DNA of 64,000 nt from a virus (Duplodnaviria > Heunggongvirae > Uroviricota > Caudoviricetes): the IMG/VR virus record IMGVR_UViG_3300014204_000143. One strand, given 5' to 3'. Below are positions 1-45,429 of the stretch, piece after piece. The notes under the pieces are model-generated. The model was not told the origin of the DNA. It saw only the letters and a program-made list of their open reading frames with translations, and made no database searches. The position numbers and the translations under genes were made by a program. Each line of letters starts with the position of its first letter. Within the stretch, counting starts at the first letter, position 1.

Positions 1-414
1 TCGTCGACTAGTAGTTCAACTTCTTCGAGTACATCTAGTTCAACTTCATCGTCTACAAGTTCTTCAACTTCAAGTTCTACGTCTTCATCAACAAGTAGTT
101 CAACGTCTAGTTCTACTAGTAGCTCTACATCTTCATCAACTAGTAGTTCAACGTCTTCATCAACAAGTAGTTCTACCAGTTCTTCAACTTCAAGTTCAAC
201 AAGTTCTTCAACAAGTTCAACCTCTAGTTCGACAAGTAGTTCGACATCTAGTTCAACTAGTAGTTCTACGAGTTCGCTCCCAATAGAAATTGAAGACTGG
301 ATACCAAAGGCAGATATTGGAAAAAATACGTATCGAGGGAAAATACAAATAGATAGTTATGTAGGAAAAGGAGGTTATGAAAATATAAAAGCAGATTTAA
401 TAGATAGAATTTAA
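1..414 (+). CDS. C-terminal part of a Ser/Thr-rich (STSSS)n repeat protein; the 5' end lies outside the window
   Basis: Frame 1 is open from position 1 and reads STSSS repeats, then ...LPIEIEDWIPKADIGKNTYRGKIQIDSYVGKGGYENIKADLIDRI, ending at TAA 412-414. It resembles the C-terminus of the next gene. Confidence 0.55.
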   Translation, partial: SSTSSSTSSSTSSSTSSSTSSSTSSSTSSSTSSSTSSSTSSSTSSSTSSSTSSSTSSSTSSSTSSSTSSSTSSTSSSTSSSTSSSTSSSTSSLPIEIEDWIPKADIGKNTYRGKIQIDSYVGKGGYENIKADLIDRI

Positions 415-419
415 TAAAT

Positions 420-3275
420 ATGGCTACACTTTATTGGTACGGTGGTTCAGGAAATTTTAGTTCAGCATCAGGTCACTGGAGTACAAACTCTGGCAATGTT
501 CCTGCGGCTGACCACGTAGCACCAACATCAACAGATGATGTTATTTTTGATACTTCAAGTTCTGTAGCAGAAGCTGCTTATACTGTAACTATTGATGCAA
601 CTGCTAATTGTCAGAACTTTACAATGGATGGACCAAGTGCCACTGATGCCACTAAAGTAACTTGGGCTGGAAGTTCCACATTAAATATTTATGGAAATAT
701 TAATTTGAGTGGAGGTACGGCAGGAATTACTTCAACATATAGTGGTGGAATAAATATGGCCGCCACTAGTGGAACAAAAACTATTGATTTTAATTCTGTT
801 ATTCATCTAGGTCGTTTGTTGTTTGGTATATACGGTAGTGACTCCGCTACTTTTCAATTATCCAGAGATATTGAATTAGCATTTGTAGGTGGTGCTTCAT
901 CTTATTTTGGGTTAGATTATGGAGCGTTTGATGCTAATGGAAAAACGGTTACTCTTAATATCTCCTCTACGGATGGTATTAGAGGTCCAATAACATTTTA
1001 TAATTTAATTTTACTAGGGGTTGCAAGAAATGACAACAAAGTAACTTTAAATTCTAATATAACAGTTTCTAATACCCTAACAATAACTGGAGGTTCCGCT
1101 ATTAACCGTATTTTAGTGGAATCTAATACAATTGGAACTTCTAGAACGATAACTGCAGCTGCCATCTCAATCTCTAATGCCGATTTCCAAGATATTACTG
1201 GTGCTGGTGATGCAACTTGGGATATGTCTGCTATTACTGGGGGTTCTGGTAATTGTGGTGGAAACTCAATGAAAGCATTGGGTGATGCTGCCTTTACTAC
1301 CGCAGATACTTGGTACTGGCATGCTGATACTGGTAATGTTTCAGACTACACAAAATGGTATACAGAAACTAATGGTGGTGGCTCACAAATGGCTTCCACC
1401 TTAGTTCCACTACCTCAAGATACCTTAAGATTTGATGACAGTTCTTTTAATAGTGGTTCACAAACGATAACTCAGAACATGCCTCGTATTGGAAGTATTG
1501 ATTTTACAGGAGCGACTAATACACCCACATTTACAACCTCAACAGTGGCTTCAGTGTTTGGTTCTATTACCTTAATAAGTGGGATGACTTTGACGGCTTC
1601 AACTCAGGTATATACTTTTGAAGGAAGAAACAGTTATTTTTTAACAAATGCAGGAAAATCTTGGGGAAAAGCAATTATAATAAACGCCCCAAATGGTTCA
1701 TTAACATTAAAAGATGATTACAATTCTATTGCTTCAATAACTTTGACTAACGGTACTTTTAGTGCAGTAGATGGTGCTATAAATTCAAATGTTACTTTGA
1801 GTGCACTTTTATCAAATAATACTAATACTGGAAGAACACTTACAATGGGTTCTGGATTATGGACATTTTCTACAGAAGCAGTGAGTTTTGTTTTAATAAA
1901 TGCTACCAATCTTACTTTTACTTCTACTACCTCAACAATAAAACTTACAGCAGTTTTGACTGGTAATAGATTTTTTAGTGGAGGAGGATTAACTTTTGGA
2001 AACTTTTGGAATGCGACTACTGGTGCATATTCAATAATAATGTCAACTTCTGATTATTTCAACGACTTTAAAATAGACGCTGGTAGAGAAGTTAATTTTA
2101 CAAACTCAACAACAACAACTGTAAACACATTTACTGCTTTAGGAACATCTGGTTCACATATAGTAATTCATAACACTTCAGGAACAACTCACGCTACTCT
2201 TACTAAAGCAGGTGGGGGATTAATAACTGGTTGTGATTACATAGACATTCAAGAAATGACAGGGAGTCCTATTTCTACTTGGTATATAGGTTCGAATTCT
2301 ACTGACACTGGAAGCACTTGTACAAATATTTATTTAGAAAATACACCAACAACAACGTCAAGTAGTTCTAGTACATCAAGTTCAACTTCAAGTTCTACTA
2401 GCTCATCAACCTCAAGTTCAACGTCTAGCTCGACAAGTAGTTCTACAAGTTCTAGCACATCTAGTTCGACCTCAAGCAGTACATCTAGTTCAACATCAAG
2501 TAGCACTAGCTCATCGACTTCAAGTTCAACAAGTTCTTCGACTTCAAGTTCAACAAGTAGCTCGACTAGTTCTTCAACTTCAAGTTCGACTACTAGTTCT
2601 TCAACTTCGTCAAGTACGTCTAGTTCGACTTCAAGTTCTACAAGTTCTTCGACTTCAAGTTCTACGTCTAGCTCAACATCTAGTTCTACAAGTTCTTCAA
2701 CTTCGTCAAGTACGTCTAGTTCTACTTCAAGTTCTACAAGTTCTTCAACTTCAAGTTCTACGTCTAGTTCAACATCTAGTTCTACTAGCTCATCGACTTC
2801 AAGTTCTACGTCTAGTTCAACTAGTTCGACTTCAAGTTCTACTAGTTCTTCGACTTCAAGTTCTACGTCTAGCTCAACATCTAGTTCTACTTCAAGCTCT
2901 ACAAGTTCTTCAACCAGTAGTTCTACGTCTAGTTCAACTTCAAGTTCAACGTCTAGTTCGACTTCAAGCTCAACGTCTTCATCTACGAGTAGTTCTACTA
3001 GTTCATCAACTAGTTCTAGCACGTCTAGCTCAACATCTAGCTCAACTAGCTCATCAACCTCGAGTTCAACGTCTAGTTCAACTAGTTCAACATCTAGTTC
3101 GACTAGTAGTTCGACTAGTTCTTCAACGTCTAGTTCAACATCTAGCTCAACTAGTTCTTCAACTTCAAGTTCAACGTCTAGTTCGACGAGTTCTTTGCCT
3201 ATGGAATTTGGATTAACTCATCCATCTGGAAGTATAGGAATATTTACTCTTTATGGAAGCAAACCAAGATATTAA
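420..3275 (+). CDS. Putative tail fibre/adhesin. The N-terminal ~640 aa are Gly/Ser/Thr/Asn-rich and probably beta-rich; the C-terminal ~285 aa are near-perfect (STSSS)n.
   Basis: 951-aa ORF. Its composition and size fit phage fibre proteins. It is immediately followed by more structural-like genes. Confidence 0.55.
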   Translation: MATLYWYGGSGNFSSASGHWSTNSGNVPAADHVAPTSTDDVIFDTSSSVAEAAYTVTIDATANCQNFTMDGPSATDATKVTWAGSSTLNIYGNINLSGGTAGITSTYSGGINMAATSGTKTIDFNSVIHLGRLLFGIYGSDSATFQLSRDIELAFVGGASSYFGLDYGAFDANGKTVTLNISSTDGIRGPITFYNLILLGVARNDNKVTLNSNITVSNTLTITGGSAINRILVESNTIGTSRTITAAAISISNADFQDITGAGDATWDMSAITGGSGNCGGNSMKALGDAAFTTADTWYWHADTGNVSDYTKWYTETNGGGSQMASTLVPLPQDTLRFDDSSFNSGSQTITQNMPRIGSIDFTGATNTPTFTTSTVASVFGSITLISGMTLTASTQVYTFEGRNSYFLTNAGKSWGKAIIINAPNGSLTLKDDYNSIASITLTNGTFSAVDGAINSNVTLSALLSNNTNTGRTLTMGSGLWTFSTEAVSFVLINATNLTFTSTTSTIKLTAVLTGNRFFSGGGLTFGNFWNATTGAYSIIMSTSDYFNDFKIDAGREVNFTNSTTTTVNTFTALGTSGSHIVIHNTSGTTHATLTKAGGGLITGCDYIDIQEMTGSPISTWYIGSNSTDTGSTCTNIYLENTPTTTSSSSSTSSSTSSSTSSSTSSSTSSSTSSSTSSSTSSSTSSSTSSSTSSSTSSSTSSSTSSSTSSSTSSSTSSSTSSSTTSSSTSSSTSSSTSSSTSSSTSSSTSSSTSSSTSSSTSSSTSSSTSSSTSSSTSSSTSSSTSSSTSSSTSSSTSSSTSSTSSSTSSSTSSSTSSSTSSSTSSSTSSSTSSSTSSSTSSSTSSSTSSSTSSSTSSSTSSSTSSSTSSSTSSSTSSSTSSSTSSSTSSTSSSTSSSTSSSTSSSTSSSTSSSTSSSTSSSTSSLPMEFGLTHPSGSIGIFTLYGSKPRY
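2356..3195 (+). repeat. In-frame tandem repeat with a 15-nt period encoding (STSSS)n. Synonymous codons are shuffled between units.
   Basis: Direct reading: units such as agt tct acg tct agt, agc tca aca tct agt and so on. The protein repeat is perfect while the DNA repeat is degenerate. The same repeat type occurs at 1-290 and 5060-5225. Confidence 0.9.
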
Positions 3276-3276
3276 T

Positions 3277-3379
3277 AGCTAGTTTATCCCGCTGGGTTAG
3301 CATTAGTTATTTACAACTAGTTTATCCCATTGGGTTGACGTTAGTTATTTATAACTAATGTTATAATTAATAAATAAAG
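3277..3379 (+). promoter_or_regulatory. Two tandem copies of a ~38-bp element (TTTATCCC-N3-TGGGTT-N4-TTAGTTAT) followed by an extended -10 (TGTTATAAT at 3359-3367), ~20 nt upstream of ATG 3388
   Basis: Seen directly. The same element plus TGTTATAAT recurs at 11933-11991, upstream of ATG 12017. Confidence 0.45.
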
Positions 3380-3387
3380 TAAAAAAA

Positions 3388-4788
3388 ATGATAACAATTA
3401 GAGCCGACAATCTTATTCTTACAAAAAACTCTCCATATTCGTATTTGAATACCAATTATATTGCAGGTGTCACAGATATGGTGGTTGTTAATTGGATTGA
3501 TTTTAAACCAGATGACTACGTTTTAATTGGAGAATGGGGTTCAGAAAACACAGAAATTGTTCAAGTATCTTCTATAAAGGGGTCTACAAATACAATTACC
3601 CTTAAGGTTGCAAGTAAATTCTCTCATGCTGAAAGTACAAAAGTAACCATTATTAGATATAATATGGTGTTGTTTTATCACACAACAACTACCACATTTT
3701 CTACTGGAACTCACGTTAGACAAAAATCATATCTTGGAAATGATACTACTCAATTTGATATAACTAATCCAGCAGGAACAACATTTAGATATACTTGGGA
3801 CGGAACAGGAACTAATCCATTAATTGCAGACTTCGCAGTAATCGGAAATTCGGTTTATATTTCTGCTCAAAACTTTAATGCTAGCAATAATGGAACATTT
3901 GTTATAACAGGAAAAGGAACTAATTATTTTGAAGTTACTAATGCTTCTGGTGTAATTGAATCTAATAAAACAATTGGAACTGGTTCGGTTGCTATTAAAT
4001 CAGATAGACTTGCAATTGCCTCTGATAGTCAATTTACTGATATTTTTGATGATACTTATACAACTGGATATGGTTGGTATTTATTTTATAACTCTACCAC
4101 TGATACTGTAACTCAACAAAGTAATTATATCCCCTATAGTGGATTTGAAGAAGACTCAACCAAGAGTGTTCTCGACAGATTCTTTGATATTCTCTCTAAC
4201 TCTGAACAGAAACTTATTACAACTGATATGGCCTACTCGTGGATGAATGAGGGTTATTCTAAAATATATAATGCTCTCGGACTAGTTAATAAAGAATATA
4301 ACTCACCAAGTTCAGTTACAATCACAACTACTTCTGGAACAGCTGAGTATCTTATTTCTACTTATATGACAGATTTTGCAGATATTATTTCTGTTTATTG
4401 TGGCACTGAAGATAACGAAGTTGGAAATATATCACTAGACAAAATAGATGGTTGGAATTCCGAAACCGACAACACTGTTAAATATTTTATTCGAGGGAAT
4501 TATATTGGTTTTTCTCCAGTTCCAGCGGCGGCAACTGCTTATACAATTCGCTATGCCACGAAGTCAGCAACGGTCTCAAGCTATATTGATGAATTAAATT
4601 TACCAGATGGAAGTTTCTACTGCGTGACTGACTGGATGCTTTTTAGAGCCAGTATGAAGGCTAGTAGTATTGATGGAGCAATGCACAAAAACTTATTTGA
4701 TGAAGCTGTTAAGGTAATGCAATTAGTTTCTCACAAAAGAGACGCTAATCTAGATAGTTGGGGAATTGCTAATAACGCTAACGTTTAA
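3388..4788 (+). CDS. Structural (tail-fibre/baseplate-like) protein carrying one copy of the 'FDITNPAGTTFRYTWDGTG' repeat domain
   Basis: 466-aa ORF. Residues ~120-200 match the repeat domain found six times in ORF 6762..11708. Preceded by the promoter-like element. Confidence 0.5.
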   Translation: MITIRADNLILTKNSPYSYLNTNYIAGVTDMVVVNWIDFKPDDYVLIGEWGSENTEIVQVSSIKGSTNTITLKVASKFSHAESTKVTIIRYNMVLFYHTTTTTFSTGTHVRQKSYLGNDTTQFDITNPAGTTFRYTWDGTGTNPLIADFAVIGNSVYISAQNFNASNNGTFVITGKGTNYFEVTNASGVIESNKTIGTGSVAIKSDRLAIASDSQFTDIFDDTYTTGYGWYLFYNSTTDTVTQQSNYIPYSGFEEDSTKSVLDRFFDILSNSEQKLITTDMAYSWMNEGYSKIYNALGLVNKEYNSPSSVTITTTSGTAEYLISTYMTDFADIISVYCGTEDNEVGNISLDKIDGWNSETDNTVKYFIRGNYIGFSPVPAAATAYTIRYATKSATVSSYIDELNLPDGSFYCVTDWMLFRASMKASSIDGAMHKNLFDEAVKVMQLVSHKRDANLDSWGIANNANV

Positions 4789-4790
4789 TT

Positions 4791-5234
4791 ATGGCAGGTA
4801 GTAAAACAAAAAACTCTCAACGACTTACAATTCAATACTTCGAAGGTGTCAACGCTCAGGTTGGAAATAACTTATCTAAAACAACCGAACTCAGGCACGT
4901 CGAAAACGCCAGAAGTAATAAAATTGGAATCATCGAGAAGCGGACTGGTAAAACTTTAACAGGAGATGATGTGGATACATTAAGTGTCTACTCCTTGTTT
5001 TATTTTGATAACGCTGGAGCAACAAATACGGGACTCTATATGGTGATAGATTTCAATAATAGTACAACCACCTCATCGACTTCTTCAAGCACTTCAAGTT
5101 CAACTACGTTTACAAGTTCAACAAGTAGTTCTACTTCGTCTAGTACGTCATCGAGCACGTCTAGTTCGACTACCTTTACAAGTTCAACTTCATCGTCAAC
5201 ATCTTCATCAACTAGTTCAACAACTACTTTATAA
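4791..5234 (+). CDS. Small structural-module protein with a C-terminal STSSS-repeat tail
   Basis: 147-aa ORF. The C-terminal ~50 aa are STSSS/TTFTSS repeats. Tightly coupled to its neighbours. Confidence 0.45.
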   Translation: MAGSKTKNSQRLTIQYFEGVNAQVGNNLSKTTELRHVENARSNKIGIIEKRTGKTLTGDDVDTLSVYSLFYFDNAGATNTGLYMVIDFNNSTTTSSTSSSTSSSTTFTSSTSSSTSSSTSSSTSSSTTFTSSTSSSTSSSTSSTTTL

Positions 5235-5237: not shown

Positions 5238-6761
5238 ATGTCAGCAAAATTATATTATTTAAATACATCAGGAGTTTGGACATTAATGACAGACCCAGAT
5301 TTGGCTGGTCTTGCTAGTGCTAGAGTCGACACAACGGTCGCTGAGGGGTGTTGCTTTATGGTAAACGGAACAAGTAACAACCTCTACATTATGGCAACTG
5401 GAACGACTGTAGTGCCTTCTACGACCGCTACAGGGCATCTGTACAACTCTCCAAAAGCAAGAAAGATAAACTACTATAAAGATAGACTCTACCTCGGAGA
5501 CTATACCGTTGGTTCAATTAGATATAAAAATGGAATTGCACTCTCTTCGAATCCAATGGGAATCCTCTCGCTTATAAATGAGGATGTTACCCCATCAGGT
5601 TCAACGGTTATAAAAGTAACCGATACAAAATATATTAGAACGACTGATTTGTTAGAAGTCTACAGAGGTTCTGTTAAAATAGCAACTTTAACGGTAACTA
5701 AAAAAACAGAAAGTTCTATTACGGCCACAGTTGTATTTGAAATAACTGTCCCAGCAACTACTACATTATTAAGTGCTGACGAACTCTGGGTAAGTGGAAC
5801 TTATAGCGGAACCAGATTGTTTAGATGGTGCGATAGATTTGCGAGTGGTGTTGATGTAAAAGAATATGACAGTTTTAGAATTACTTGTGACCAAAACGAA
5901 AGTATAAAAATGTTAGTTAATATCGGCGATGTTATGATTATTGGAACTGATAATAGTTTAGCCGCCTGGAACGGAACCAATCTTCAAAACTATGATATGG
6001 GAATCGGGTGTGTCAGTGAGAATGGTTATGTTAAACACGGTTATCTTTTCTTTATTCACTATACGGGTATCTATAGAACTTCAGGAGAAAGTCCTCAATT
6101 AATTTCTGATAAAATTAAACCATATATTGATGGAGCAACTAAAAGCGGACTAGAAAGTGCTTGTATGGGAAAGAAAGGTGACAGTATCTTTTGTTATATC
6201 GGAGATGTAACACTCTACAACGAAGATGGCAGTATCGATAAAACTCTAAGCAATGTTACTCTTGAATATAACTTACGACAAGGTAATTGGTTTGTACATA
6301 CTGGAATAGAAATAAAACAGTTCTGTACATACCCACAAGAAACTGATAGCACCTCACTTCAAATAATTGATAACAGTGATAGAAATATTTATGAATTCTT
6401 ATCTGGGGAAACCGACAATGGAACAGTGATTCCTTTTAGAATGGATACCGAAGAAATTAATTTTGGGGGTGAAATTGAAAGTTTATTCTCTTTAAGAAAA
6501 ATAATTTTAGAAGTTGAAAGAGGAACAAACATTCATATCTTTTTAAGTCTAGATGGTGGTGCTTGGTATGAATTAAAAACTACCGCCACTAAGGGAGCAA
6601 ATACAATCGCTATCACTGCCAAGGATGATAATAATAGTGCTCCTCCAAGATGTCGTCGTGTCAGAATAAGTATGCGACACAATGAAAAACAATTATGTAA
6701 AATAAGTAGACTCGCTTTAGAATATAGTTCAAGTATAGAAGAAGAAGAAAATAGAGCATAA
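5238..6761 (+). CDS. Hypothetical virion/tail protein
   Basis: 507-aa ORF inside the co-directional structural block. Its stop overlaps the next start (TAAATG at 6759-6764). Confidence 0.4.
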   Translation: MSAKLYYLNTSGVWTLMTDPDLAGLASARVDTTVAEGCCFMVNGTSNNLYIMATGTTVVPSTTATGHLYNSPKARKINYYKDRLYLGDYTVGSIRYKNGIALSSNPMGILSLINEDVTPSGSTVIKVTDTKYIRTTDLLEVYRGSVKIATLTVTKKTESSITATVVFEITVPATTTLLSADELWVSGTYSGTRLFRWCDRFASGVDVKEYDSFRITCDQNESIKMLVNIGDVMIIGTDNSLAAWNGTNLQNYDMGIGCVSENGYVKHGYLFFIHYTGIYRTSGESPQLISDKIKPYIDGATKSGLESACMGKKGDSIFCYIGDVTLYNEDGSIDKTLSNVTLEYNLRQGNWFVHTGIEIKQFCTYPQETDSTSLQIIDNSDRNIYEFLSGETDNGTVIPFRMDTEEINFGGEIESLFSLRKIILEVERGTNIHIFLSLDGGAWYELKTTATKGANTIAITAKDDNNSAPPRCRRVRISMRHNEKQLCKISRLALEYSSSIEEEENRA

Positions 6762-9700
6762 ATGACTCAAAAAAATTACAATTCAATAGATAATCCCTAC
6801 GATAGTTTTTTAAATCGTACCGATGCTGGAGCGTCAACCGTTGTTAATAGTGGTCAGGAATATGGAGGGACAACTTTTACCGATAGTGGAAATGGTGGTT
6901 CGGCTAGTCCCAATGGTTCTCCAGATGTTTCTAGTCCTAATGATGTTTCTGGGGGTTCGATTCAAGGTTCAAGTTTTCAAAGTATCTGGTTAAAGGACTG
7001 GATTAAATCAAGAAATTACAAACCGAAATCTGTCGGTTTTTATATTGACGGTAAAACTGGTTACGCTGAGTTTGTGAATGTTTATGTGAGTGGTAACATT
7101 CAAGCTTTGTCTGGTTTGATTGGTGGATTTACAATTGGAGCGACAAACTTATCGGCAACCTCTGGTGGAAATACTACAATTGTGTCTAGTGGCTCAACTG
7201 CCTTTAGTGCTGGACCAACTGGTGCTCCAACTTTTTATGTTACTCAGGCTGGAGTTTTAAATGCAACTGGGGCGATTATTTCTGGAACATTAACTGCCAC
7301 AACTGGTTATATTGGAGGTTGGTTAATTAATGCAACTAATTTATCGGCAACTGGAATAATCTTAGACTCTCTAAATCAGCAAATTAAAGTTGGTGCTACT
7401 GACCCAATTATAATTGATGGTTTATTAAAAGAAATTGAAAGTAGTAATTATGTTTCGGGTGCTTTTGGTGCTGGATTCCACTTAGATAGTAATTTATTTG
7501 AAGTTGGTAATATTTCGTGTCGAGGGATGATACGAACTTCTGTATTTCAAAAAGATTTAATTAATGTGATGGGTGGAAGTTTTGTTGTTCTTGATGGTGA
7601 TATTTTAGATACAACGATGACTGCACTTGACACCGCAACTATTACAACCAAAGGAACGGTCAATTTTTCAATCAATGATATATTAAGAATTAAAGAAGAT
7701 ATTGACGATGAATGGTTTAGAGTTACAAACGTTTCTGGACATCCAACTTATGTTGTCACAAGAGACTTGGCTGGAATGTATCCATCAAATACAAATCCAT
7801 GCTGGACAAAGGGATCAACTATTGTAAATTATAGACAGAGTGGAGATGGTGGAGTTTTTATGACAGCAACAGAAACGGATGCACCTTATCTTAGTATTTT
7901 TGACCATGCAGGTTCTCCGTGGACTACGATTAATACTAGACTTAGACTTGGTAATTTAAACGGATTTTTAGGTTACTCTTCTGACTTATATGGAATTGCA
8001 ATTGGAGAAACCAATTCATACTTAAAATATGATACCGACAATGGATTAAGAATTAAAGGAGATATTACAATTACAGGGGGGAATGCTTCTGTAACATTTT
8101 ATGAATCAACTGAACCAGTATCTGGAATGAAGGCTGGTGATTATTGGGTTGATTCAGATGACAATTCTCTTCATGTATATCAGGGAGGTGTATGGGTACT
8201 TGTTGCCGCATCGGGAGTTAAAGTTTTTTCTGCTGAACCAACCACTCCTTATCATGTTGGAGATTTATGGGCAAGCGGAGTCTTTCTTAAAATATGTAAT
8301 CATGAACTACTAACTGGTGTTTATAATCCTTTAGACTGGAGTTATGCTACTGGATATACCGATGATACTGTAGCAAATTCTAAAATAAAAACGTTTATTC
8401 AAACAACAATTCCAACTTCTATTTCTGCTGGAGATTTGTGGATTGATTCCGATGATGGAAACAAACTTTATCGTGCAACTAATGCGGGGGATACAACAAT
8501 TGGTCCAACGGCGTGGGTAGTTGTTCCAATTGACTTTGCTAATATAAATGGTGCAACTAAACCAGAAAATAATGCTACCGTTGGAGCTACTTGGGGAACA
8601 AATCTTGTAAACATTCCAGGAACATTGGGAACTCCAACTGGAACTGGTTTGTTTCTTTCTTCCACTCATTTAGGTTTCTATGATGCTCCAAATTGGAAAA
8701 CATATATGGATAGTTATGGGAATTTTTATTTAGGAGGGACTTCTGGTAAATTACAGTGGGTTGCTGGAACAAATACTCTCACAATTACTGGTATTATAAA
8801 TGCCGATAGTGGAACAATTGGAGGATTTACTCTTGGTGCTGATTATATTCGTGATTCTGCTAATGGTGTTGGATTAGCATCAACTGTTAGTGGTGGAGAC
8901 GATGTTAGGTTTTGGGCTGGAGATACTTTTGCCAATAGAGATATTGCTCCATTTAGAGTTTATGAATCTGGTAATGTAGTTATGGAGAGAATCACAGCTT
9001 CAAATATTCAAGCATATGATGCTATTGTAGATATAAATGGTGGAGGAGACTATTATGATTTATATGGTGCAGTTTTAAATGGTGCTAAAAAGATATTTAT
9101 TAGAAACGGTGAATATATTTTGACTTCACAACTAGATATTGCACAAGAAAATGTAAAAATTGAAGGACAGTCTCGTGATAAAACAATCATAACTAGAGCA
9201 AGAGGTGGTAATAATATTTATTTTTTATTGGGTGATGGAACTACTCAATGGGACGTAACTAATCCAGCAGGAACAACATTTAGATACACATGGAATGGTC
9301 AAGGTTATGAACCAGATTTTTCTAAACTAAAAGATGGCTATAATATATTGATAGAATCAAGTAGTGGAACTAGTTATCTTGATTATGATAATACTGGAAA
9401 TTTTTGTATTACTGGAACTGGAACTACTTATTTTGAAATTACTAATTCTTCTGGTGTTGTAGAAACTGGAAAAACAATTGGACTTGACGATACTAGTTAT
9501 ATAAAGATAAGACCAAAAGCTATATATGGTTATGCTACTGGTGGTGGTGGTGGAAACCTAACAGAATATACAGTTACTAATCCAGTTGGAACAACGTGGA
9601 GATACACCTATACTGGAGTTGGAGGAGACCCAGATATAACTACTAGAGTTAAGGTTGGAATGTTAGTTGATATGATTGATTCTTCATTTTCTACTAATAA

Positions 9701-11708
9701 TAAAGGGCTATATACAGTAACTGGAATTGGAACAGATTATTTTGAAGTTGACAAAGTCGCAGGAACGGCAGAAAGTAAATATTGTTCAGGCATTTATTTA
9801 TATTCTAGTGTTATTGGTGATTCCACATCACAGTTTGATATTACCTGTCTTGATAGTGTTAAAAAAATATTTAGATATACCTGGGACGGGACTGGAACAG
9901 ACCCAAACATATTACAGTTGACTCATGGTGAGAATATCTATATAAAAGCACAAAATTTTTCTTCAGTGAATAATGGTCATTTTGTAATTTTAAATCCAAC
10001 ATCAACTACTTTTGATATTCATAATGAGATTGGAGTTGCAGAAAATAATAAAACAATTGGTACGGGATATATTATAAAAGTTAATACTTATCTTGGAGAC
10101 TCTTCAACTCAGTTTGATATAACAAATCCATCAACTGGACTGTGGAGATACACTTGGGACGGAACAGGAAAGAACCCACACATAGAAGAACTCGTATCTG
10201 TTTATGATACTATGTATATTAATGGTTCAACTTTTGCATCAAATAATAGGGGAAAAAGAGTTTATGTTTATGCCGTTGGAACTGATTATTTTGAAATTAA
10301 AACAGAGACAGGAACGGTTGAATCTAATAAAATTCTTGGAACTGGATATATTGAACACGTGAAAGGATATGTAATAAATAATTGGGGAGAAAAAACTGAA
10401 GTTAGCAATCTCAAATTTATAGAATCTGGAAACTATCGTTATGGTTGTTTGGTTTCTTTAAATAGCTTAAGTATTCATCATACCGATTTTGATACGCAAG
10501 AATCTCAAAGCTCTTTAATGCCATGTATAGTTGATAGGAGTGGTAGTCTAACATTAAAAAATTCTTATCTTATTAGTTATTCTAATTGTGTAGTTAGATT
10601 TCCCTACTCAGGGAATGAAACTGTTATAAGCGAAAATCATTTTGAATCTTATTATGGTTCAAGTGTTTATGAAACAATGACTTCATATAGAATAGGTGGA
10701 AGTTCTTCTAGATTTGATATAACTAATACTGCTGGAGATACATGGAGATATACATGGGATGGTACAGGGACTGACCCTGGAATATCTACTGGCTGGAGTT
10801 TTTATGCAGTTATTGTTTATGCTGAAAATTTTACAGGAAGAAATAATGGAATCTTTCAAATAACAGATTCTGGGCTTAATTGGTTTGAAGTTACAAACAT
10901 AAATGGATATGCAGAAAACAACAAAACAATTGGAGAAGGTTATATAGAAAAAATGATTTCTGGAGGTTTTTATAAGTTTGTTTTTGAAAAAAATTATTGT
11001 TATCGTGGTATGTATAATTCTTCCAGTAGTTATATTGCAAATATTCCAGGGGCATTAAATATTGTTGGAGACGGAACAGTTATAAGAGATAATACATTTT
11101 TTGCACAACCTTCAAATTATACTCCAGCAGTCAGACTATTTGGAGTTAATAGTATTGTCACTGGAAATAAATTTAATAGTTATCCTGAAAACTATTCTGC
11201 AAATGGTGGTCTTGGTATTCATATTACAGCCAAAGGCAGTTGTGTTATAGAGAATAATATATTTAATGCCCTAAGCATTGGAATTCTTTTAGATTATTAT
11301 GAAACAGACAATGGTTGTGGTCATGCATCTACAAGCAACAATCTGTTTAATTTTGTGGTTGGAGAAACTAATGGTTATGGTATATCAATTCTTTCCCCAA
11401 TTTCAAAAATGGTAATTTCTGGAAATCATCAATATTGTGGAGCTTCTTTAATTGACCAACAGTATGGTTCTTCTAATTTAACAGTAATAAATAATATTGT
11501 TACTAATTCTGCCGCAGAAGCCTTTTTAATGCAAAGTCTAACATATTCTGTCTTTAGTAATAATCAAACAAAAGATTGTTATCTTGGATATGACATTTCT
11601 GGAGCAGATTATTGTACGATTTTGGGCAATATATCTCAGGGTAACGCAAATTCAGATGACGTTGCTGGTATTACAAACAGCGAAACGGCTCACAATTTAT
11701 TCTTATAA
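6762..11708 (+). CDS. Giant tail fibre/tailspike. It has six ~95-aa repeat domains (9230-10956) and a C-terminal right-handed parallel beta-helix-like region (NNIFNALSIGIL..., ISGNHQYCG..., ~10960-11708).
   Basis: 1648-aa ORF. The internal motif FDITNP-x-GT-x-RYTWDGTG...NNG-F...GTDYFE...NKTIG-GY recurs six times. The C-terminal periodic motifs are typical of pectate-lyase-like tailspikes. Confidence 0.6.
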   Translation: MTQKNYNSIDNPYDSFLNRTDAGASTVVNSGQEYGGTTFTDSGNGGSASPNGSPDVSSPNDVSGGSIQGSSFQSIWLKDWIKSRNYKPKSVGFYIDGKTGYAEFVNVYVSGNIQALSGLIGGFTIGATNLSATSGGNTTIVSSGSTAFSAGPTGAPTFYVTQAGVLNATGAIISGTLTATTGYIGGWLINATNLSATGIILDSLNQQIKVGATDPIIIDGLLKEIESSNYVSGAFGAGFHLDSNLFEVGNISCRGMIRTSVFQKDLINVMGGSFVVLDGDILDTTMTALDTATITTKGTVNFSINDILRIKEDIDDEWFRVTNVSGHPTYVVTRDLAGMYPSNTNPCWTKGSTIVNYRQSGDGGVFMTATETDAPYLSIFDHAGSPWTTINTRLRLGNLNGFLGYSSDLYGIAIGETNSYLKYDTDNGLRIKGDITITGGNASVTFYESTEPVSGMKAGDYWVDSDDNSLHVYQGGVWVLVAASGVKVFSAEPTTPYHVGDLWASGVFLKICNHELLTGVYNPLDWSYATGYTDDTVANSKIKTFIQTTIPTSISAGDLWIDSDDGNKLYRATNAGDTTIGPTAWVVVPIDFANINGATKPENNATVGATWGTNLVNIPGTLGTPTGTGLFLSSTHLGFYDAPNWKTYMDSYGNFYLGGTSGKLQWVAGTNTLTITGIINADSGTIGGFTLGADYIRDSANGVGLASTVSGGDDVRFWAGDTFANRDIAPFRVYESGNVVMERITASNIQAYDAIVDINGGGDYYDLYGAVLNGAKKIFIRNGEYILTSQLDIAQENVKIEGQSRDKTIITRARGGNNIYFLLGDGTTQWDVTNPAGTTFRYTWNGQGYEPDFSKLKDGYNILIESSSGTSYLDYDNTGNFCITGTGTTYFEITNSSGVVETGKTIGLDDTSYIKIRPKAIYGYATGGGGGNLTEYTVTNPVGTTWRYTYTGVGGDPDITTRVKVGMLVDMIDSSFSTNNKGLYTVTGIGTDYFEVDKVAGTAESKYCSGIYLYSSVIGDSTSQFDITCLDSVKKIFRYTWDGTGTDPNILQLTHGENIYIKAQNFSSVNNGHFVILNPTSTTFDIHNEIGVAENNKTIGTGYIIKVNTYLGDSSTQFDITNPSTGLWRYTWDGTGKNPHIEELVSVYDTMYINGSTFASNNRGKRVYVYAVGTDYFEIKTETGTVESNKILGTGYIEHVKGYVINNWGEKTEVSNLKFIESGNYRYGCLVSLNSLSIHHTDFDTQESQSSLMPCIVDRSGSLTLKNSYLISYSNCVVRFPYSGNETVISENHFESYYGSSVYETMTSYRIGGSSSRFDITNTAGDTWRYTWDGTGTDPGISTGWSFYAVIVYAENFTGRNNGIFQITDSGLNWFEVTNINGYAENNKTIGEGYIEKMISGGFYKFVFEKNYCYRGMYNSSSSYIANIPGALNIVGDGTVIRDNTFFAQPSNYTPAVRLFGVNSIVTGNKFNSYPENYSANGGLGIHITAKGSCVIENNIFNALSIGILLDYYETDNGCGHASTSNNLFNFVVGETNGYGISILSPISKMVISGNHQYCGASLIDQQYGSSNLTVINNIVTNSAAEAFLMQSLTYSVFSNNQTKDCYLGYDISGADYCTILGNISQGNANSDDVAGITNSETAHNLFL

Positions 11709-14688: not shown

Positions 14689-15255
14689 ATGGACTTACCA
14701 CAAAATACACAATATAAAAGTGATTATGTTTCTAAACTGATGCCTCTTGTTAGTGCGATTACGGCTAAAGGAAAACAAACATCACAACCAACCCAGCAAA
14801 CTTCATTGCCTCGTATTTCGGGTACACCAAGTTCACTCTCTCAATTTCCTATCACAACTCCTTATGGTGGAAGTACAAACTATGAACCAGGTGGAACTCA
14901 CGGGGGGATAGATATAGGAACACCAACAGGAACTTCACTTCCAGCAATTCAAGGAGGAACAGTGACGGATGTTGTTACTGGAAAAGGATGGACTCCAAAA
15001 ACACCTTCTTATGGGAATACAATTACGGTAAAAGACAATGAGGGAAATTTATGGAGATACTCACATTTGTCAGACGCTTACGTTAAGGTTGGCGATACAG
15101 TTAATACTGGTCAAGCAATTGGAACAAGTGGTTATTCAGGTTCAACATATAGTGCAAAAAATCCGAATAGTCCTGGTCCGCACGTAGATATAAGGTTGCT
15201 CAAAAACTTATCTGGAAGGTATGTTGAAGAAAATCCCCAGCAATATATACGGTAA
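14689..15255 (+). CDS. Peptidase M23 (LytM-like) domain protein, a candidate virion-associated peptidoglycan hydrolase
   Basis: HxxxD motif (THGGIDIG) followed by Gly-rich beta strands and ...GPHVDIR, as in M23 endopeptidases. Confidence 0.55.
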   Translation: MDLPQNTQYKSDYVSKLMPLVSAITAKGKQTSQPTQQTSLPRISGTPSSLSQFPITTPYGGSTNYEPGGTHGGIDIGTPTGTSLPAIQGGTVTDVVTGKGWTPKTPSYGNTITVKDNEGNLWRYSHLSDAYVKVGDTVNTGQAIGTSGYSGSTYSAKNPNSPGPHVDIRLLKNLSGRYVEENPQQYIR

Positions 15256-22222: not shown

Positions 22223-22912
22223 TTAATCCGCCCAAAAAAACGGAGTAGTGGTTGTGCTCGTACTGGTCGTAGTGCTTGTAGAGATATACTTCCCATTACA
22301 AACAGGACATTTCCAGAGGAACCATTTATTTGGTTCCTCTTTTGGGTCAAACTTAAGATGTATTTTAGCTCCACAAACAGGGCAATGATAAATTGGAAAG
22401 TTTTTTTTACACGTTTCCTTCTTTTTTGTATATGACTTTTGATAACAATCACGACTACAATATTTCTGTCTTTTTTTACCAGGGATAAATTCTTTACCGC
22501 ACCTTACACAAACTCTTTTGTTTTTTTCTACGTCCTTTTTAGGGACATACGATATTTCAAGATTTTCAATATCGTTATTATCCCGATTACCATCAATGTG
22601 TTTGAATCTTGTGCCTCTGCCAACAACACCATTATGATATTCCCACGTTGCTCTTGCCAGAGTTACTTTATCAGTAGTCCTTAACCATTGTCCATCGGGT
22701 TGTTTTGAATATTTATACCCATTAAATATAATAAAATCAAACTTTACCTTATTAGACATTTCCATCCCGAGTCTTCTCATCTTTATCCAGACAGAATTAT
22801 AGTTGAGTTTGAGTTCTCTTGTTGCCTCTTTAAGACTCGTTCCTTTCTTATATAACTCGTATATTTTTTTGATGTCTTCTTTTGTTATTATTTTTCTTTT
22901 AATCTCCCCCAT
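22223..22912 (-). CDS. HNH endonuclease with N-terminal HTH and C-terminal CxxC zinc ribbons (homing-endonuclease-like)
   Basis: HIDGNRDNNDIENL is an HNH core; the N-terminus has TSLKEATRELKLNYNSVW (HTH); the C-terminus has multiple CxxC pairs. Confidence 0.5.
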   Translation of the reverse strand: MGEIKRKIITKEDIKKIYELYKKGTSLKEATRELKLNYNSVWIKMRRLGMEMSNKVKFDFIIFNGYKYSKQPDGQWLRTTDKVTLARATWEYHNGVVGRGTRFKHIDGNRDNNDIENLEISYVPKKDVEKNKRVCVRCGKEFIPGKKRQKYCSRDCYQKSYTKKKETCKKNFPIYHCPVCGAKIHLKFDPKEEPNKWFLWKCPVCNGKYISTSTTTSTSTTTTPFFWAD

Positions 22913-26384: not shown

Positions 26385-27209
26385 TTAATTGTTAATGTCT
26401 ATATTAACATCAGGTATTTCAACTTCCTCGTCTTCTAATTTTAAACTATCTATTAAATCAGTAAACGACAAAGAATCATAATCTGATTCCCAGTCATCTA
26501 TAAAAAACAATTTATCTGGTATAGAACTACAAACTCCAAATAGAATTGGGTCTCTCATTGCTGATTTTTCTTCGTTAGAAATAGTTTCTTTCTTTTCTTT
26601 TTTTTCTTCAATTTTTTCACTGTAATAATGATAGATTACATATTTATCAAATATTTTTAGCGAATCTATTTTTTTCTTTTTTTCTAGAATATCGTCTGGA
26701 ATAACGTTTGTATATTTATCAAAATCTGTATCAGAGATGTGTCCTCCTCTTATATCATTTTTATGTTTATCAACTATACTTTTTAAAACATACATTTTAA
26801 TTCCAGCACCACGTATCTCAGATAATCTTACTTCCTCTGCTAATTGTTTTAAAAACTTTTCAGCGAACACATTATGTCCAAGTTTAATATATTTGTTTGC
26901 AAGTTTTTCTATTTTTTTTATTCTTCGTTCATATCTAAATTTACCGAGCAAACTCATTTTATTTTTTTTAATATATTTAAATACTAAAATTGGATTGAGT
27001 CCTTCTTTCTTTTCAAAGTTTAACGTTGTTCCTCCACTACTAATATAAATACCAGTCCCAGAAACATTCCAACCATAAAATGTAATTGAGTTGCTGTTAA
27101 TTATAGCACCACTATCACTTGTGGTTGCACTAGACAAAATTCTAGTCGGAACTGTTCCCCTAATAGAGGTGTTGTCAACTATTTTTTTAGATTTTTTATT
27201 AGTTTTCAT
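26385..27209 (-). CDS. Hypothetical protein
   Basis: 274-aa ORF with no recognisable motif. Confidence 0.35.
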   Translation of the reverse strand: MKTNKKSKKIVDNTSIRGTVPTRILSSATTSDSGAIINSNSITFYGWNVSGTGIYISSGGTTLNFEKKEGLNPILVFKYIKKNKMSLLGKFRYERRIKKIEKLANKYIKLGHNVFAEKFLKQLAEEVRLSEIRGAGIKMYVLKSIVDKHKNDIRGGHISDTDFDKYTNVIPDDILEKKKKIDSLKIFDKYVIYHYYSEKIEEKKEKKETISNEEKSAMRDPILFGVCSSIPDKLFFIDDWESDYDSLSFTDLIDSLKLEDEEVEIPDVNIDINN

Positions 27210-31858: not shown

Positions 31859-31906
31859 AGTTTAACATACTAAAAACACCTTGTCAAGTAGTAAACTGTG
31901 GACAAC
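31859..31906 (-). promoter_or_regulatory. Sigma70-like promoter on the minus strand (TTGACA-17 nt-TAAACT) with an upstream TTGTCCACA (DnaA-box-like) site, driving ORF 31145..31831
   Basis: Reverse complement of 31859-31887 reads TTGACAAGGTGTTTTTAGTATGTTAAACT. The element is near-identical to 47029-47076 and, inverted, to 47451-47497. Confidence 0.5.
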
Positions 31907-32619
31907 TATTTTCCAGCAACCAAATTACCAGCCCTTAAAAGTGAATTAAATGTTCCTGCATCAGTCCACCATCCCCCCAATACATGACTCCCCATAGATC
32001 CATTTTTAACAAAGTAATTATTAACATCGGTAATTTCTAATTCACCTCTGCCTGATGGTTTTAGCGTTTTGATTACATCCCATACTTCTTTGTTGTAGAA
32101 ATATAAACCAGTGACAGCTAAATTACTTTTTGGGTCTTCTGGTTTTTCTTCAATACAGACAACTTTGCCATCTTCATTTATCTCAGCTACTCCGAATCTT
32201 TGTGGGTCATCAACTATCTTTAAAAAAATATTGGCGGAGTCGGATGTGCTTTGAAAATTTCTAACAAACCCAGCAATGTCATCCTCATAAATGTTATCCC
32301 CAAGAATAACAGCGACATCTTCGTCTCCAGCAAAACGCTCACACAGTCCCAACGCTTCTGCAATCCCTCCAGCCTCTTCTTGAACCTCATAAGAAAACTT
32401 AGCACCGAATGATTTACCAGAACCAAGCAAGTCTAAAAAGTTACCAGCGTTCCCCTTACCAGAAACAATCATGATTTCATTTATCCCTGACTTTGTTAGA
32501 GTTTCGATTGGATAATAAATCATCGGTTTGTCATACACTGGCAGTAAATGCTTGTTAAAAATACGAGTGCATTCACCCAGCCTACTACCAGTCCCTCCTG
32601 CGAGAATAATTCCCTTCAT
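31906..32619 (-). CDS. rmlA: Glucose-1-phosphate thymidylyltransferase (RmlA-like sugar nucleotidyltransferase, short form)
   Basis: MKGIILAGGTGSRL...LLPVYDKPMIYYPIETL..., ...EEKP..PKSNLAVTGLYFY and ...GELEITD.. match the RmlA family along the whole length. Confidence 0.8.
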   Translation of the reverse strand: MKGIILAGGTGSRLGECTRIFNKHLLPVYDKPMIYYPIETLTKSGINEIMIVSGKGNAGNFLDLLGSGKSFGAKFSYEVQEEAGGIAEALGLCERFAGDEDVAVILGDNIYEDDIAGFVRNFQSTSDSANIFLKIVDDPQRFGVAEINEDGKVVCIEEKPEDPKSNLAVTGLYFYNKEVWDVIKTLKPSGRGELEITDVNNYFVKNGSMGSHVLGGWWTDAGTFNSLLRAGNLVAGK

Positions 32620-33307: not shown

Positions 33308-34216
33308 TTATTTAATTAAGTCTTCTATATCTATTCCGTGAGTTTGATACCACCAATCTCTATCTTTATCTTTATTGTTTTCTTTTAATCTATTGTATTT
33401 TAACAATATTTTATTTTGCCTATTAATTTCTTCTTTAAAAAATGGAATATCAAAATCATTGTTACTTTTATATAACTCTCTCAATATTTTTCTTAATACG
33501 TATCCTTGTTTAGTGTTACTTGGTTTATATCCAGCCTCAATTATTTTTAAAGCACATTCTTTTAATAAATCTATTTTATTATTTTTTATAATTCCATTAA
33601 CAATACTATCTAGTCTTTCATATCCAAATCCAACATCTATACATGTTCCAAGTGGATTAACAATATTACCAATTTCTATTCCTTTGTGATAAAATTCTGT
33701 ACAATATCCCCCAATATTACCATCTGACCAAAGACACTCGTTATCAATTTTAACTTTTATTTTATGTTTTTTATAAAAGTTATCCCATTCTTTTTTATCT
33801 TGATGAACAGTTGCGTGGTCTATTTTAATGCCAATTCTTTTCATAAATTCAACAAAAAAATCAATTGCCATTTCTACCGACATATCCCTAAAAGAAAACA
33901 ATCCAATCATATTAAAATATGCTAAATGAGTTCCATCTCCAATTTCATTAAAATCATTTAACCTAATACAACTTTGGATATTAGCTCTTGTGCCATAATA
34001 ATTAGTATCAATAAAATTACTTTTAAACTGTTGCATTCCAGCTGGACAAAATAAGGTTGTAGTATCATAAGGAGAAACAGAATTATTAACACTAAATGGT
34101 ATGTTGTTTTCTCTACAAAGTTCACTATAGATTTTTATTATATCCATATTCTTAATTAAGTCTTCTATTTTTTTCGTTAAGAAGCATTTGTTTAATCTTA
34201 CCATCATCAAAGGCAT
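33308..34216 (-). CDS. Alanyl-tRNA synthetase catalytic-core homologue. It is truncated and lacks the tRNA-recognition, editing and C-Ala domains.
   Basis: Block-by-block match to the AlaRS N-terminus: SPYDTTTLFCPAGMQQFK (DPTLLFTNAGMNQFK), QSCIR (QRCVR), HLAYFNMIGLFSFRD (HHTFFEMLGNFSFGD), ECLWSDGNIGGYCTEFYH ([20 protein letters not shown]), IEIGNIV (IEIWNIV) and IDVGFGYERL (VDTGMGLERI). Confidence 0.65.
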   Translation of the reverse strand: MPLMMVRLNKCFLTKKIEDLIKNMDIIKIYSELCRENNIPFSVNNSVSPYDTTTLFCPAGMQQFKSNFIDTNYYGTRANIQSCIRLNDFNEIGDGTHLAYFNMIGLFSFRDMSVEMAIDFFVEFMKRIGIKIDHATVHQDKKEWDNFYKKHKIKVKIDNECLWSDGNIGGYCTEFYHKGIEIGNIVNPLGTCIDVGFGYERLDSIVNGIIKNNKIDLLKECALKIIEAGYKPSNTKQGYVLRKILRELYKSNNDFDIPFFKEEINRQNKILLKYNRLKENNKDKDRDWWYQTHGIDIEDLIK

Positions 34217-35757: not shown

Positions 35758-36660
35758 TTATTTATTATTCCAGCGTTCTTTCAAAATAATTCTATTATTA
35801 TCTATCATTTTTCTAATTTCTGGTTCATTTTTAATCTTGCTCATTGAACATCCTCCAACATGAAGCGTTCTAAACTCAGACGTTCTATAGGTTTCATAAC
35901 CCAACATTCTCATTTCTTTCCAAAGATTTCTATCCTCACCAAATCCAACTTTATAATCTTCATCATAAAATTGATAACCATCTCTTAGGTTAGAAATTTT
36001 ATTTGCTAATTCTTTAGTAAACATAAAGAAACTTCCCATTTCTGCTCCTGGTTCTTTAATATCTTTGTGTGGAAGATTTATTTGTTCTTTTTTTAAATTG
36101 ATTGATTTGTAAAAATCAAGTCTTCCTTTTTCATTTAAACAATCTGTCTGATAACACGATTTTATAAGATTGCTCATAAGGGCTCCAATTGGTTTTTCAA
36201 ATTGAGGATTATTAGATTCAAAATCTTTTATCATACTCTCAACCCAACCATCCCAAACTACAATATCATTATTGGCAGCAACTATATAAGGACACCTAGA
36301 AAGTGCTATTCCTTGATTCATTGCCTTTCCAAATCCTAAATTATCTGTATTTTTAATTAGAATATCTGCTTGTGCAAAATATTCAGATGGTGTAAAAAAT
36401 TCATCTCTCTCGGTAAATTTCCATGAACAGTTTGGATTTAAAAATTCATCTAATACTTCATCATCAGTTAGTCTACTTCCATTATCAATAATGATATATT
36501 CTACTAATTCTCTTGGTGTGTTTTCCAGCATTCTTTTTAAACAAATAGAAGCTATCATCCAAGTTTCATATTTACCATATTTACCACAATGTTCTGGTAA
36601 AAACCAACTTGGAATAACAATACTTACTTTCTTTTTATTTTTTTCAAAATTATTTCCCAT
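35758..36660 (-). CDS. Family-2 glycosyltransferase
   Basis: KVSIVIPSW... then YIIIDNGS... then NLGFGKAMNQG...ANNDIV, the GT-A/GT2 hallmark order. Confidence 0.6.
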   Translation of the reverse strand: MGNNFEKNKKKVSIVIPSWFLPEHCGKYGKYETWMIASICLKRMLENTPRELVEYIIIDNGSRLTDDEVLDEFLNPNCSWKFTERDEFFTPSEYFAQADILIKNTDNLGFGKAMNQGIALSRCPYIVAANNDIVVWDGWVESMIKDFESNNPQFEKPIGALMSNLIKSCYQTDCLNEKGRLDFYKSINLKKEQINLPHKDIKEPGAEMGSFFMFTKELANKISNLRDGYQFYDEDYKVGFGEDRNLWKEMRMLGYETYRTSEFRTLHVGGCSMSKIKNEPEIRKMIDNNRIILKERWNNK

Positions 36661-37568: not shown

Positions 37569-39408
<1,840 letters not shown>

Positions 39409-45340: not shown

Positions 45341-45429
45341 TGGAGGTCTTGGTTGGGAGTCGAACCCAAATACCTTGTATGTGGCTGTTCCTAACCACTA
45401 CGCTCTATCCAAATTGAGCTACCAAGACC
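45341..45429 (-). tRNA. tRNA gene (isotype unresolved, possibly His-like with a G-1 nucleotide). The anticodon region is unusually long.
   Basis: Reverse complement reads G-GTCTTGG TA GCTC AATTTGGATA GAGC ... TTGGG TTCGACT CCCAA CCAAGAC C. There is a perfect 7-bp acceptor stem, a canonical D-arm and a TPsiC arm (GGGTTCGACTCCC). The segment between the D-arm and T-arm is ~9 nt longer than standard. Confidence 0.6.

Follow-up and report, generated by a model that had tools for sequence, protein, structure and literature searches.

Polyserine and Pro/Thr linkers join carbohydrate-binding modules (CBMs) to catalytic modules in bacterial carbohydrate-active enzymes, for example in Saccharophagus degradans and Cellvibrio japonicus (PMC2386152). 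In serine-rich repeat adhesins, the stalks receive their O-glycans in the cytoplasm, ahead of export (PMC5578698, PMC6973325). For phages, glycosyltransferases (GTs) and a methyltransferase encoded by mycobacteriophages Che8, Corndog and Myrna are reported to modify structural proteins, the targets being the C-termini of capsid and tail-tube subunits, with the chemistry proven (Freeman et al. 2023, cited in PMC11600133 and PMC12619734). The adaptor of phage SU10 offers docking sites for fibres, the first ~90 residues of which bind it (PMC9509320). Here we describe a 64,000-nucleotide stretch of viral DNA (IMG/VR record IMGVR_UViG_3300014204_000143; hereafter the window), in which genes on both sides of an SU10-type adaptor gene carry long arrays of the tetrapeptide TSSS. 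These arrays are, on balance, probably long, flexible and hydrophilic tethers for host-binding heads in virion appendage proteins. This and the other functional roles given to the arrays below are proposals drawn from the sequences. A literature search found no description of arrays of this kind in phage appendages, which does not prove that there is none.

The source contig, ENA ERZ27247350 k141_1632479, is 92,733 bp long (L004 in our set of loci); we read the window and 6.6 kb further upstream. The phage is uncultivated, with a genome of ~93 kb, and appears to be short-tailed, with a podophage-like structural block, since the open reading frame (ORF) at 3388..4788 (+) encodes a head-to-tail adaptor of the SU10 type (Pfam PF24175, 3e-18). 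This adaptor is what the window shares with SU10 and Kuravirus; the capsid family PF17236 (SU10_MCP) was found in the relative L145 only, the phage's own capsid gene being outside the DNA read. In everything except the adaptor and capsid families the phage differs from described SU10-like phages, as it does in its ~93-kb genome with many extra genes. We know of no Ser-rich arrays in SU10. Neither DNA nor protein searches of 50,697 GenBank phage records (megablast, tblastn) gave a match, and an exact-match search of JGI contigs for the DNA further upstream on the source contig gave none.

Four genes of this phage carry arrays, of 56, 282, 344 and 410 residues (~1,090 array residues in all). An earlier note on the window had listed three array proteins. 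The one that it lacked is encoded 5′ of the window on the source contig, 1.8 kb further upstream; it has 532 aa and consists of 49 aa, a 344-aa array and 138 aa. The next gene, the 3′ end of which is at 1..414 (+), encodes a 494-aa protein composed of a 39-aa N-terminus, a 410-aa TSSS array that makes up 83% of the protein, and a 45-aa C-terminus; within the window are array codons 1..276 and the C-terminal peptide LPIEIEDWIPKADIGKNTYRGKIQID... (277..411), followed by the stop codon. The third gene (420..3275, +) encodes a 951-aa putative appendage protein, with a head of 643 aa (420..2348), an array of ~70 TSSS units (2349..3194, 282 aa) and a 26-aa C-terminal peptide, LPMEFGLTHPSGSIGIFTLYGSKPRY (3195..3272). 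The remaining array is in the gene downstream of the adaptor gene. Pure Ser/Thr blocks on the + strand of the window are thus at 1..276 (92 aa), 2349..3194 (282 aa; S 209 / T 73) and 5061..5228 (56 aa), the last of which is divided into three sub-blocks by two TTF interruptions.

Thr-to-Thr spacing in ORF 420..3275 is four residues in 66 of 72 cases, so the unit is TSSS (4 aa). The near-perfect Ser/Thr blocks of the earlier note are real, at three places, but its unit, STSSS, is not; nor are there ~55 units in this ORF, where we count ~70, 67 of them perfect. All four arrays begin with TTTS, and three end in S-LP[IMS][ED]. The arrays are exceptionally pure: the three large arrays of this phage contain one non-Ser/Thr residue in 1,036, and third codon positions are near the genome background, bearing out the suggestion that selection acts on the peptide repeat. 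The repeats had also been described as protein tails. Instead, three are internal linkers with C-terminal modules (26, 45 and 138 non-repeat residues come after them), and the third of the claimed tails is an insertion within a gene. The C-terminal peptides of the array proteins include LPIEIEDWIP... and ...HPSGSIGIFTLYG...; that of the 494-aa protein belongs to a class, '[IV]ED[WFY]xPxGxIxI', that recurs after arrays in many loci.

The head of the 951-aa protein has more than 1,000 homologues, most of 620-700 aa with a short peptide soon after the core; some have unrelated C-terminal extensions, and none of the best 120 contains a TSSS array. As members of the head family usually terminate in a short peptide right behind the core, the array has been inserted between this head and its C-terminal peptide. 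In an AlphaFold2 model (121-sequence alignment), residues 1-645 form an all-β solenoid with a predicted local distance difference test (pLDDT) score above 90, and the array and C-terminal peptide have no secondary structure, at pLDDT 32-45. A Foldseek search of the PDB with this model gave no significant match, the best being β-helical autotransporter passengers (E = 0.07), and no Pfam or PDB match was found for the window's own heads. The head was rejected as a marker of the phage group: the loci that it retrieved (L001-L003) share no other detectable structural protein and have no arrays. It is a widely exchanged module.

The gene that follows the adaptor gene is split. Its first part (4791..5234, +) encodes a 147-aa N-terminal fragment, of which residues 1-86 are conserved, followed by the 56-aa S/T insertion (5061..5228) and an in-frame TAA (5232..5234); a 507-aa remainder follows in the same frame (5238..6761, +) and gave no useful match in a sequence search of the PDB. 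The position of the insertion, after ~86 residues, is similar to the length of the ~90-residue segment with which SU10 fibres bind their adaptor. Together, the two parts align along 590 residues, at 50% identity, with one unbroken 608-aa ORF of the relative L125 (10002..11828), and a continuous ORF of 589-680 aa is present at this position in L125, L127 and L128. L128 and L139 have SPSx arrays at this site and no stop there. The TAA may split the gene in reality, be read through, or result from a sequencing error. Reassignment of the codon was considered and rejected, as TAA ends 37 of the 44 ORFs checked and is the commonest stop in the genome.

The arrays are similar to polyserine linkers in that they are low-complexity Ser-rich spacers between folded modules, as seen in the contrast between the head (pLDDT >90) and the array (32-45). 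Polyserine linkers often stand beside carbohydrate-binding modules; in the relatives L125 and L128, CBM96 and Laminin_G_3 accompany the arrays, and the heads in the window have no Pfam or PDB match. Polyserine linkers of bacterial enzymes are usually tens of residues long and belong to secreted proteins; the arrays are in phage structural genes, extend over 282-810 residues, keep a strict four-residue period and have conserved C-terminal modules. With serine-rich repeat and Ser-Asp repeat adhesins they share the plan of a long Ser-rich stalk projecting a binding region. Gram-positive Ser-rich stalks are glycosylated by GT-B-type enzymes, and a GT4-like GT-B is encoded here. However, the repeats of those adhesins recur every two residues (S-A/V/T or S-D), and the proteins carry a special signal peptide, leave through the accessory Sec system and are anchored by LPXTG. 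None of the translated array ORFs has a signal peptide or LPXTG; scans of the 44 largest window ORFs (Pfam, NCBIfam, PHROG) found no Sec components, the GTs that they detected being a GT2 and a GT4-like GT-B; and the 518-aa GT-B has no additional domain of GtfA type in Pfam. Because of this, and of their period of four, the arrays lie outside the serine-rich repeat adhesin system.

Public gene callers placed antisense ORFs on the arrays in L004, L125 and L128. These calls are of (E/D)L(E/D)V or G(E/L)I(D/E) type and lie on the − strand at 3198..4280 in L004, 3239..4297 and 5835..8531 in L125, and 2736..3857 and 8464..9786 in L128; in the window, the corresponding ORF, of (E/D)L(E/D)V repeats, is at 2330..3022 (−) and is no gene but a spurious product of the array. 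The extent of such antisense ORFs coincides with that of the arrays, whereas in the window, L004, L125, L128 and L130 the + frame is free of stops from the head across the array to the end of the C-terminal module. The + strand is the coding strand, because it joins conserved domains on both sides of the arrays and is that of the whole structural operon, and because the antisense ORFs stop at the borders. Wrong-strand calls also imply that the true array proteins are largely missing from protein databases or truncated there. We give almost no credence to an artefactual origin of the arrays, whether by mis-assembly of a simple repeat or as the shadow of a real antisense (E/D)L(E/D)V protein. 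The public gene calls would agree with an antisense product, and one IMG/VR pattern match (L006) is a true (EDEV)n protein on the other strand, but the + frame and the borders of the antisense ORFs argue against it, and the same architecture is present in dozens of independent metagenomes and assemblers. Assembly collapse, which the earlier note had raised as a concern, is also unlikely, because no exact repeat exceeds 47-95 nt in the arrays, which is below the k of 141 implied by the k141_ contig name, so that the arrays can be assembled.

Arrays next to the adaptor gene are a feature of the wider phage group. Flanking DNA of adaptor homologues was taken from an assembly collection, IMG/VR and JGI metagenomes. 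The protein collection contains 541 adaptor homologues, many on contigs of 88-115 kb; in IMG/VR, a single-sequence adaptor scan gave no match and an alignment-based scan later succeeded. Ser-rich arrays adjoin the adaptor in 47 of 80 JGI metagenome loci and in 7 of 15 IMG/VR loci, and in the assembly collection they are present in two (L125, L128) of the five relatives' contigs read, besides the phage's own contig. Arrays flanking the adaptor are always on its strand, and are of TSSS, SPS[IV] or S/A/P type. L125, the adaptor of which is 49% identical, has arrays of 316, 89 and 810 aa, the longest with four non-Ser/Thr residues (at least 99.5% Ser/Thr). In relatives, the domains joined to arrays are CBM96 (3e-9, 7e-16), Laminin_G_3 (2e-22) and an NHL-like propeller. 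Another notable case is a single ORF of ~3,670 aa in IMG/VR UViG_3300022871_000009 (98.6 kb; L130 2..9946 with L191 11346..20636), in which eight TSSS arrays of 33-414 aa alternate with 5- or 10-blade propeller-like domains (repeat KIYKHSGFSSTI.DSFSSPS); a GT2 gene and an 11-kb cluster of glycan genes stand directly before this ORF.

The segments that follow the arrays are also conserved. Of 55 distinct post-array tails, most fall into two classes, the exceptions being insertions within genes and a few unrelated tails. The first is a short peptide, '[IV]ED[WFY]xPxGxIxI....G', and includes the ends of the 494-aa and 951-aa proteins. The second is a domain of ~133 aa that opens with 'EDYxRGDY..LPxD', and includes the 532-aa protein, the domain of which is 44% identical to that of a 936-aa protein of L128. 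Before this domain stands a TSSS linker of 344 aa in the window phage and an SPSI linker of 371 aa in L128. As linker position and length have been kept while the sequence has changed, the linker would seem to act as a physical spacer. Repeats of related composition occur elsewhere in IMG/VR, where pure poly-Thr and (TS)n runs are common in contigs generally. A degenerate DNA pattern for (TSSS)8 was too permissive, retrieving poly-Thr, (TS)n and, encoded on the other strand, at least one genuine (EDEV)n protein, and was not used as evidence. Three unrelated contigs from a GT2 search (L148, L167 and L203) have (TS)n or SATPSVS-type arrays at most 10 kb from a GT2 gene.

An array protein of this group is thus composed of a variable N-terminal head, an array predicted to be disordered and a conserved C-terminal module. 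The heads are the 643-residue β-solenoid and two short peptides in the window phage, and CBM96, a LamG-type lectin or a β-propeller in relatives. In the tether model, the C-terminal module would dock on the particle near the adaptor, the array would be a disordered, hydrophilic line that lets the head sweep a large volume, and the heads would make a first, reversible contact with host surface glycans. With a chain geometry of about 0.35 nm per residue, the arrays of 282, 344 and 410 residues would reach, as upper bounds for full extension, ~100, 120 and 145 nm, and the 810-aa array of L125 ~285 nm. The term tail fibres, used in the earlier note, is only loosely right for these putative appendage proteins, which are encoded next to an SU10-type adaptor gene.

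Several points weigh against the tether model. The sequences show the order of the domains, its conservation, the predicted disorder and purifying selection on composition; virion location, anchor polarity and capture of the host are inferred, the first two from gene position and conservation only. The 494-aa and 532-aa proteins have 39-49 non-repeat N-terminal residues, and would be tethers almost without a head. The head of the 951-aa protein has no significant structural relative, and a binding role for it is a guess. Low pLDDT in a low-complexity repeat is no proof of disorder. Finally, the TAA after the third array of the window would cut an N-terminal fragment off the rest of the protein, which fits a tether poorly.

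At the DNA level the arrays are not a simple microsatellite, because their TSSS units are written in many 12-nt versions: the three long arrays contain 81, 99 and 67 perfect units, in 54, 43 and 36 distinct versions respectively, the last of these being ORF 420..3275. The mixture of synonymous codons noticed earlier is therefore genuine. Codon use in the arrays is close to the genome background (AGT 31% versus 29%, TCA 27% versus 24%, TCT 26% versus 33%), with TCG and ACG modestly above it. Serine codons are not placed evenly within the unit, AGY accounting for 62% of codons at the middle serine and 9% at the last (chi-square p = 1e-35), and a distant relative shows the same trend. Nor are the units fully scrambled: the longest exact internal repeats of the three long arrays are 47, 95 and 47 nt, compared with 21-24 nt in synonymous shuffles (0 of 300 reach the observed values), and recurring 15-mers make up 34-63% versus 6-12% expected. 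Tandem Repeats Finder (TRF) gives higher-order periods within 24-105 nt (24, 48, 96 and 105 nt) at 79-84% identity. Different array genes share identical stretches of 39-59 nt, versus ~23 nt expected (0 of 200 shuffles). The idea that codon mixing was selected against slippage or recombination is not supported, given this excess of long repeats, shared stretches and periods. Long exact repeats and shared stretches suggest that block duplication and exchange are ongoing; in our reading, the arrays would derive from an ancient 12-nt unit in which very strong selection has kept Ser and Thr while synonymous sites drifted, with continuing growth and exchange of blocks.

Such exchange raises the possibility that the arrays act mainly as DNA: shared in-frame repeats would give recombination homology by which heads and anchors are swapped and tether lengths changed, diversifying host range. 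The exact stretches common to different array genes are of the kind that this would leave, as are the common TTTS starts and S-LP[IMS][ED] ends, the homologous C-terminal modules found with unrelated heads in different phages, and the fusion of eight head-array units into one ORF in one relative. However, near-perfect amino-acid purity over hundreds of residues exceeds what DNA homology needs and points to a role of the protein, and the 56-aa array shares no DNA above chance with the other three. A mainly DNA-level role is therefore improbable in our judgement.

The window also encodes four putative enzymes of sugar metabolism and transfer. The first, at 31906..32619 (−), is a short (237 aa) RmlA-like sugar-1-phosphate nucleotidyltransferase. 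Its family is clear (Pfam NTP_transferase, 1e-56), but the specific RmlA assignment made earlier falls below the cut-off of the NCBIfam rmlA equivalog TIGR01207 (259 bits versus 360.65), a model of 286 positions. The second, at 35758..36660 (−), is a soluble GT2 glycosyltransferase of 300 aa (Pfam PF00535 Glycos_transf_2, 4e-11), with a 40%-identical orthologue in another TSSS phage, L147. The third, at 55455..57011 (+), is a 518-aa GT-B (GT4-like) glycosyltransferase (PHROG glycosyltransferase, 2e-6), which the earlier note had called possible. Its homologues carry PF00534/PF13692 and are found at 50-66% identity on many 80-105-kb contigs of the phage group, and its AlphaFold model (pLDDT 90) matches BshA, MshA, WaaG and glycogen synthase in Foldseek (E 1e-12 to 1e-10), which firms up the assignment. 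The fourth, at 57951..58826 (+), is a 291-aa short-chain dehydrogenase/reductase (SDR) of the sugar-nucleotide epimerase/dehydratase kind (Pfam Epimerase, 1.5e-45), the best NCBIfam match of which, GalE, is below cut-off (124 bits). The GT2 and epimerase genes are thus as first described. Sequence searches of the PDB with the GT2 and the GT-B gave no useful match, and neither has a transmembrane segment.

These enzymes may O-glycosylate the arrays in the cytoplasm (nucleotidyltransferase, then epimerase, then GT2 and/or GT-B), yielding stiff, protease-resistant, mucin-like bottle-brush stalks. Such glycosylation would plausibly add to the tether model, with which it is compatible and by which it is not required, and we hold it tentatively, at somewhat short of an even chance. 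All four enzymes are real family members, the two GTs lack membrane segments, and the GT-B and epimerase genes belong to one close-packed + strand gene run (55455..58826). Gene order in relatives points the same way. Three relatives have GT genes directly 5′ of array genes. L128 has two such pairs, each with a GT2 gene immediately before the array gene, and one of these two GT2s is homologous to the window GT2 (E 8e-17). The 11-kb cluster of L145/L130 separates the SU10-type capsid gene from the ~3,670-aa array gene and encodes a GT-B homologue, four GT2s, methyltransferases and a cytidylyltransferase; the GT-B homologue heads it, and the homologue of the window GT2 is its last gene before the array gene. 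GT2 genes are also found upstream of arrays in L131 and L245. Precedents are the mycobacteriophage GTs, which are reported to act on capsid and tail-tube proteins (Freeman et al. 2023, cited in PMC11600133 and PMC12619734), and the serine-rich repeat adhesins (PMC5578698, PMC6973325). As in the mycobacteriophages, GTs are phage-encoded here, and L145, L126 and L128 have clusters of GT and methyltransferase genes inside the structural operon; the putative targets differ, being dedicated repeat arrays in accessory proteins, and the window GT genes are away from the structural genes.

Other observations count against glycosylation. GT clusters adjoin the adaptor also where no arrays are visible (L126, L246, L273 and L135), a GT-B homologue being located upstream of the adaptor in L126, and no GT is found within ~10 kb in three array-bearing loci (this phage, L125 and L132). 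Among 19 non-redundant loci, each with at least 6 kb of upstream DNA, the association between GTs and arrays is not significant (Fisher, 4/8 versus 4/11, p = 0.66; 5/8 versus 4/11, p = 0.37). A broad scan of IMG/VR for the GT2 family was discarded as a test of co-occurrence, being too generic (arrays in 5 of 80 loci). The window sugar genes are 27-53 kb from the arrays, dispersed through a region of replication genes; linkers at orthologous positions can be of SPS[IV] or S/A/P type instead, which proline would stiffen without sugars; and a GT fold does not tell the acceptor.

The same evidence bears on the alternative that the sugar enzymes are unrelated to the arrays, modifying either phage DNA or the host envelope against superinfection, with the arrays as unmodified linkers of polyserine type. 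The nucleotidyltransferase and GT2 genes are on the minus strand among genes for a helicase, SbcCD-like nucleases and a chaperonin, the GT-B and epimerase genes come after primase-helicase genes, and DNA glucosylation and serotype conversion are roles often reported for GTs of phages (PMC12619734). The absence of a significant array-GT link also counts in favour of this alternative. It fits less well with the window ORFs scanned, among which no hydroxymethylase or other base-modification gene was found, with the GTs, neither of which has the membrane anchor expected of bactoprenol-linked serotype-converting enzymes, and with the relatives, in which the GT genes form part of the structural operon, sharing its strand and filling the interval from the capsid gene to the adaptor. 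We regard it as unlikely.

Glycosylation of the arrays would have its fullest form in a large, uncultivated clade of podophages of ~90-100 kb, possibly infecting Patescibacteria, with (TSSS)n/(SPSx)n tentacles that would be hundreds of nm long if extended, O-glycosylated by a phage GT-B, several GT2s, methyltransferases and a cytidylyltransferase into a mucin-like coat with lectin-type heads. We put this forward with reserve, as a picture that is doubtful rather than probable.

Other features of the window lie around these genes. The gap between ORF 420..3275 and the adaptor gene contains a 38/39-nt tandem direct repeat in two copies (AGTTTATCCC..TGGGTT..TTAGTTATTTA.AACTA; 3279..3357), with no further copy in the window (0 expected by chance). 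A domain of ~85 aa (TQFDITNPAGTTFRYTWDGTGT.P...NNG.F.I....TNYFE) is inserted in the N-terminal half of the adaptor (aa ~113-200) and is also present in the adaptors of relatives; at least five copies are found in the 1,648-aa protein encoded at 6762..11708, and Pfam gives only a weak MBG_3 match. An M23 peptidase gene is at 14689..15255, and several very large proteins are without a family match. Further genes encode a GroEL-type chaperonin (37804..39405, −), a peptide deformylase (50404..50979), an RNA ligase (51128..52132), RtcB (61521..62900, −), an alanyl-tRNA synthetase-like fragment (33308..34216, −) and an SPFH/Band 7 protein (59232..60056, −); tRNA-Pro is at 45341..45429 and tRNA-Met at 47569..47642. 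Two HNH endonuclease genes (22223..22912, −, and 45826..46521, −) and a transposase-like gene (26385..27209, −) are also present, the first HNH protein having a short STSTTTSTSTTTT run at its end.

A few records bear on the host. The sole GTDB genome match of the adaptor is a contig of a Patescibacteria metagenome-assembled genome (MAG; JBAYNP010000024.1, L226), and a cellular homologue of the ORF 420 head, with a signal peptide (protein P0063), is labelled Candidatus Paceibacterota. Relatives come from groundwater and lake metagenomes, several from 0.1-µm groundwater fractions (loci L270, L273, L274, L293 and L306 among the host-hint records). Other MAG labels on relatives conflict, naming Spirochaetes and Thermodesulfovibrionia. 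Together these labels hint weakly at a host among the Patescibacteria.

If the tether model is true, these phages would find their hosts by very long disordered lines with glycan-binding heads, and not by rigid trimeric fibres. It would also change how appendage genes are recognized in metagenomes, the arrays having repeatedly been called on the wrong strand. The clade-wide scale of the arrays, the 3,670-aa beads-on-a-string protein and the wrong-strand annotation raise the interest of the finding beyond that of an observation in a single window. If the arrays are glycosylated, virion glycosylation directed by phages would have a second example, very unlike the first, with a defined repeat acceptor that could be used for glyco-engineering. 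A glycosylated tentacle coat would be the first dedicated system of acceptor repeat and glycosylation in phages beyond the actinobacteriophage capsid and tail-tube case, hidden so far by the wrong-strand annotation of the arrays. The finding may also be relevant to the phages of ultrasmall groundwater bacteria, of which almost nothing is known.

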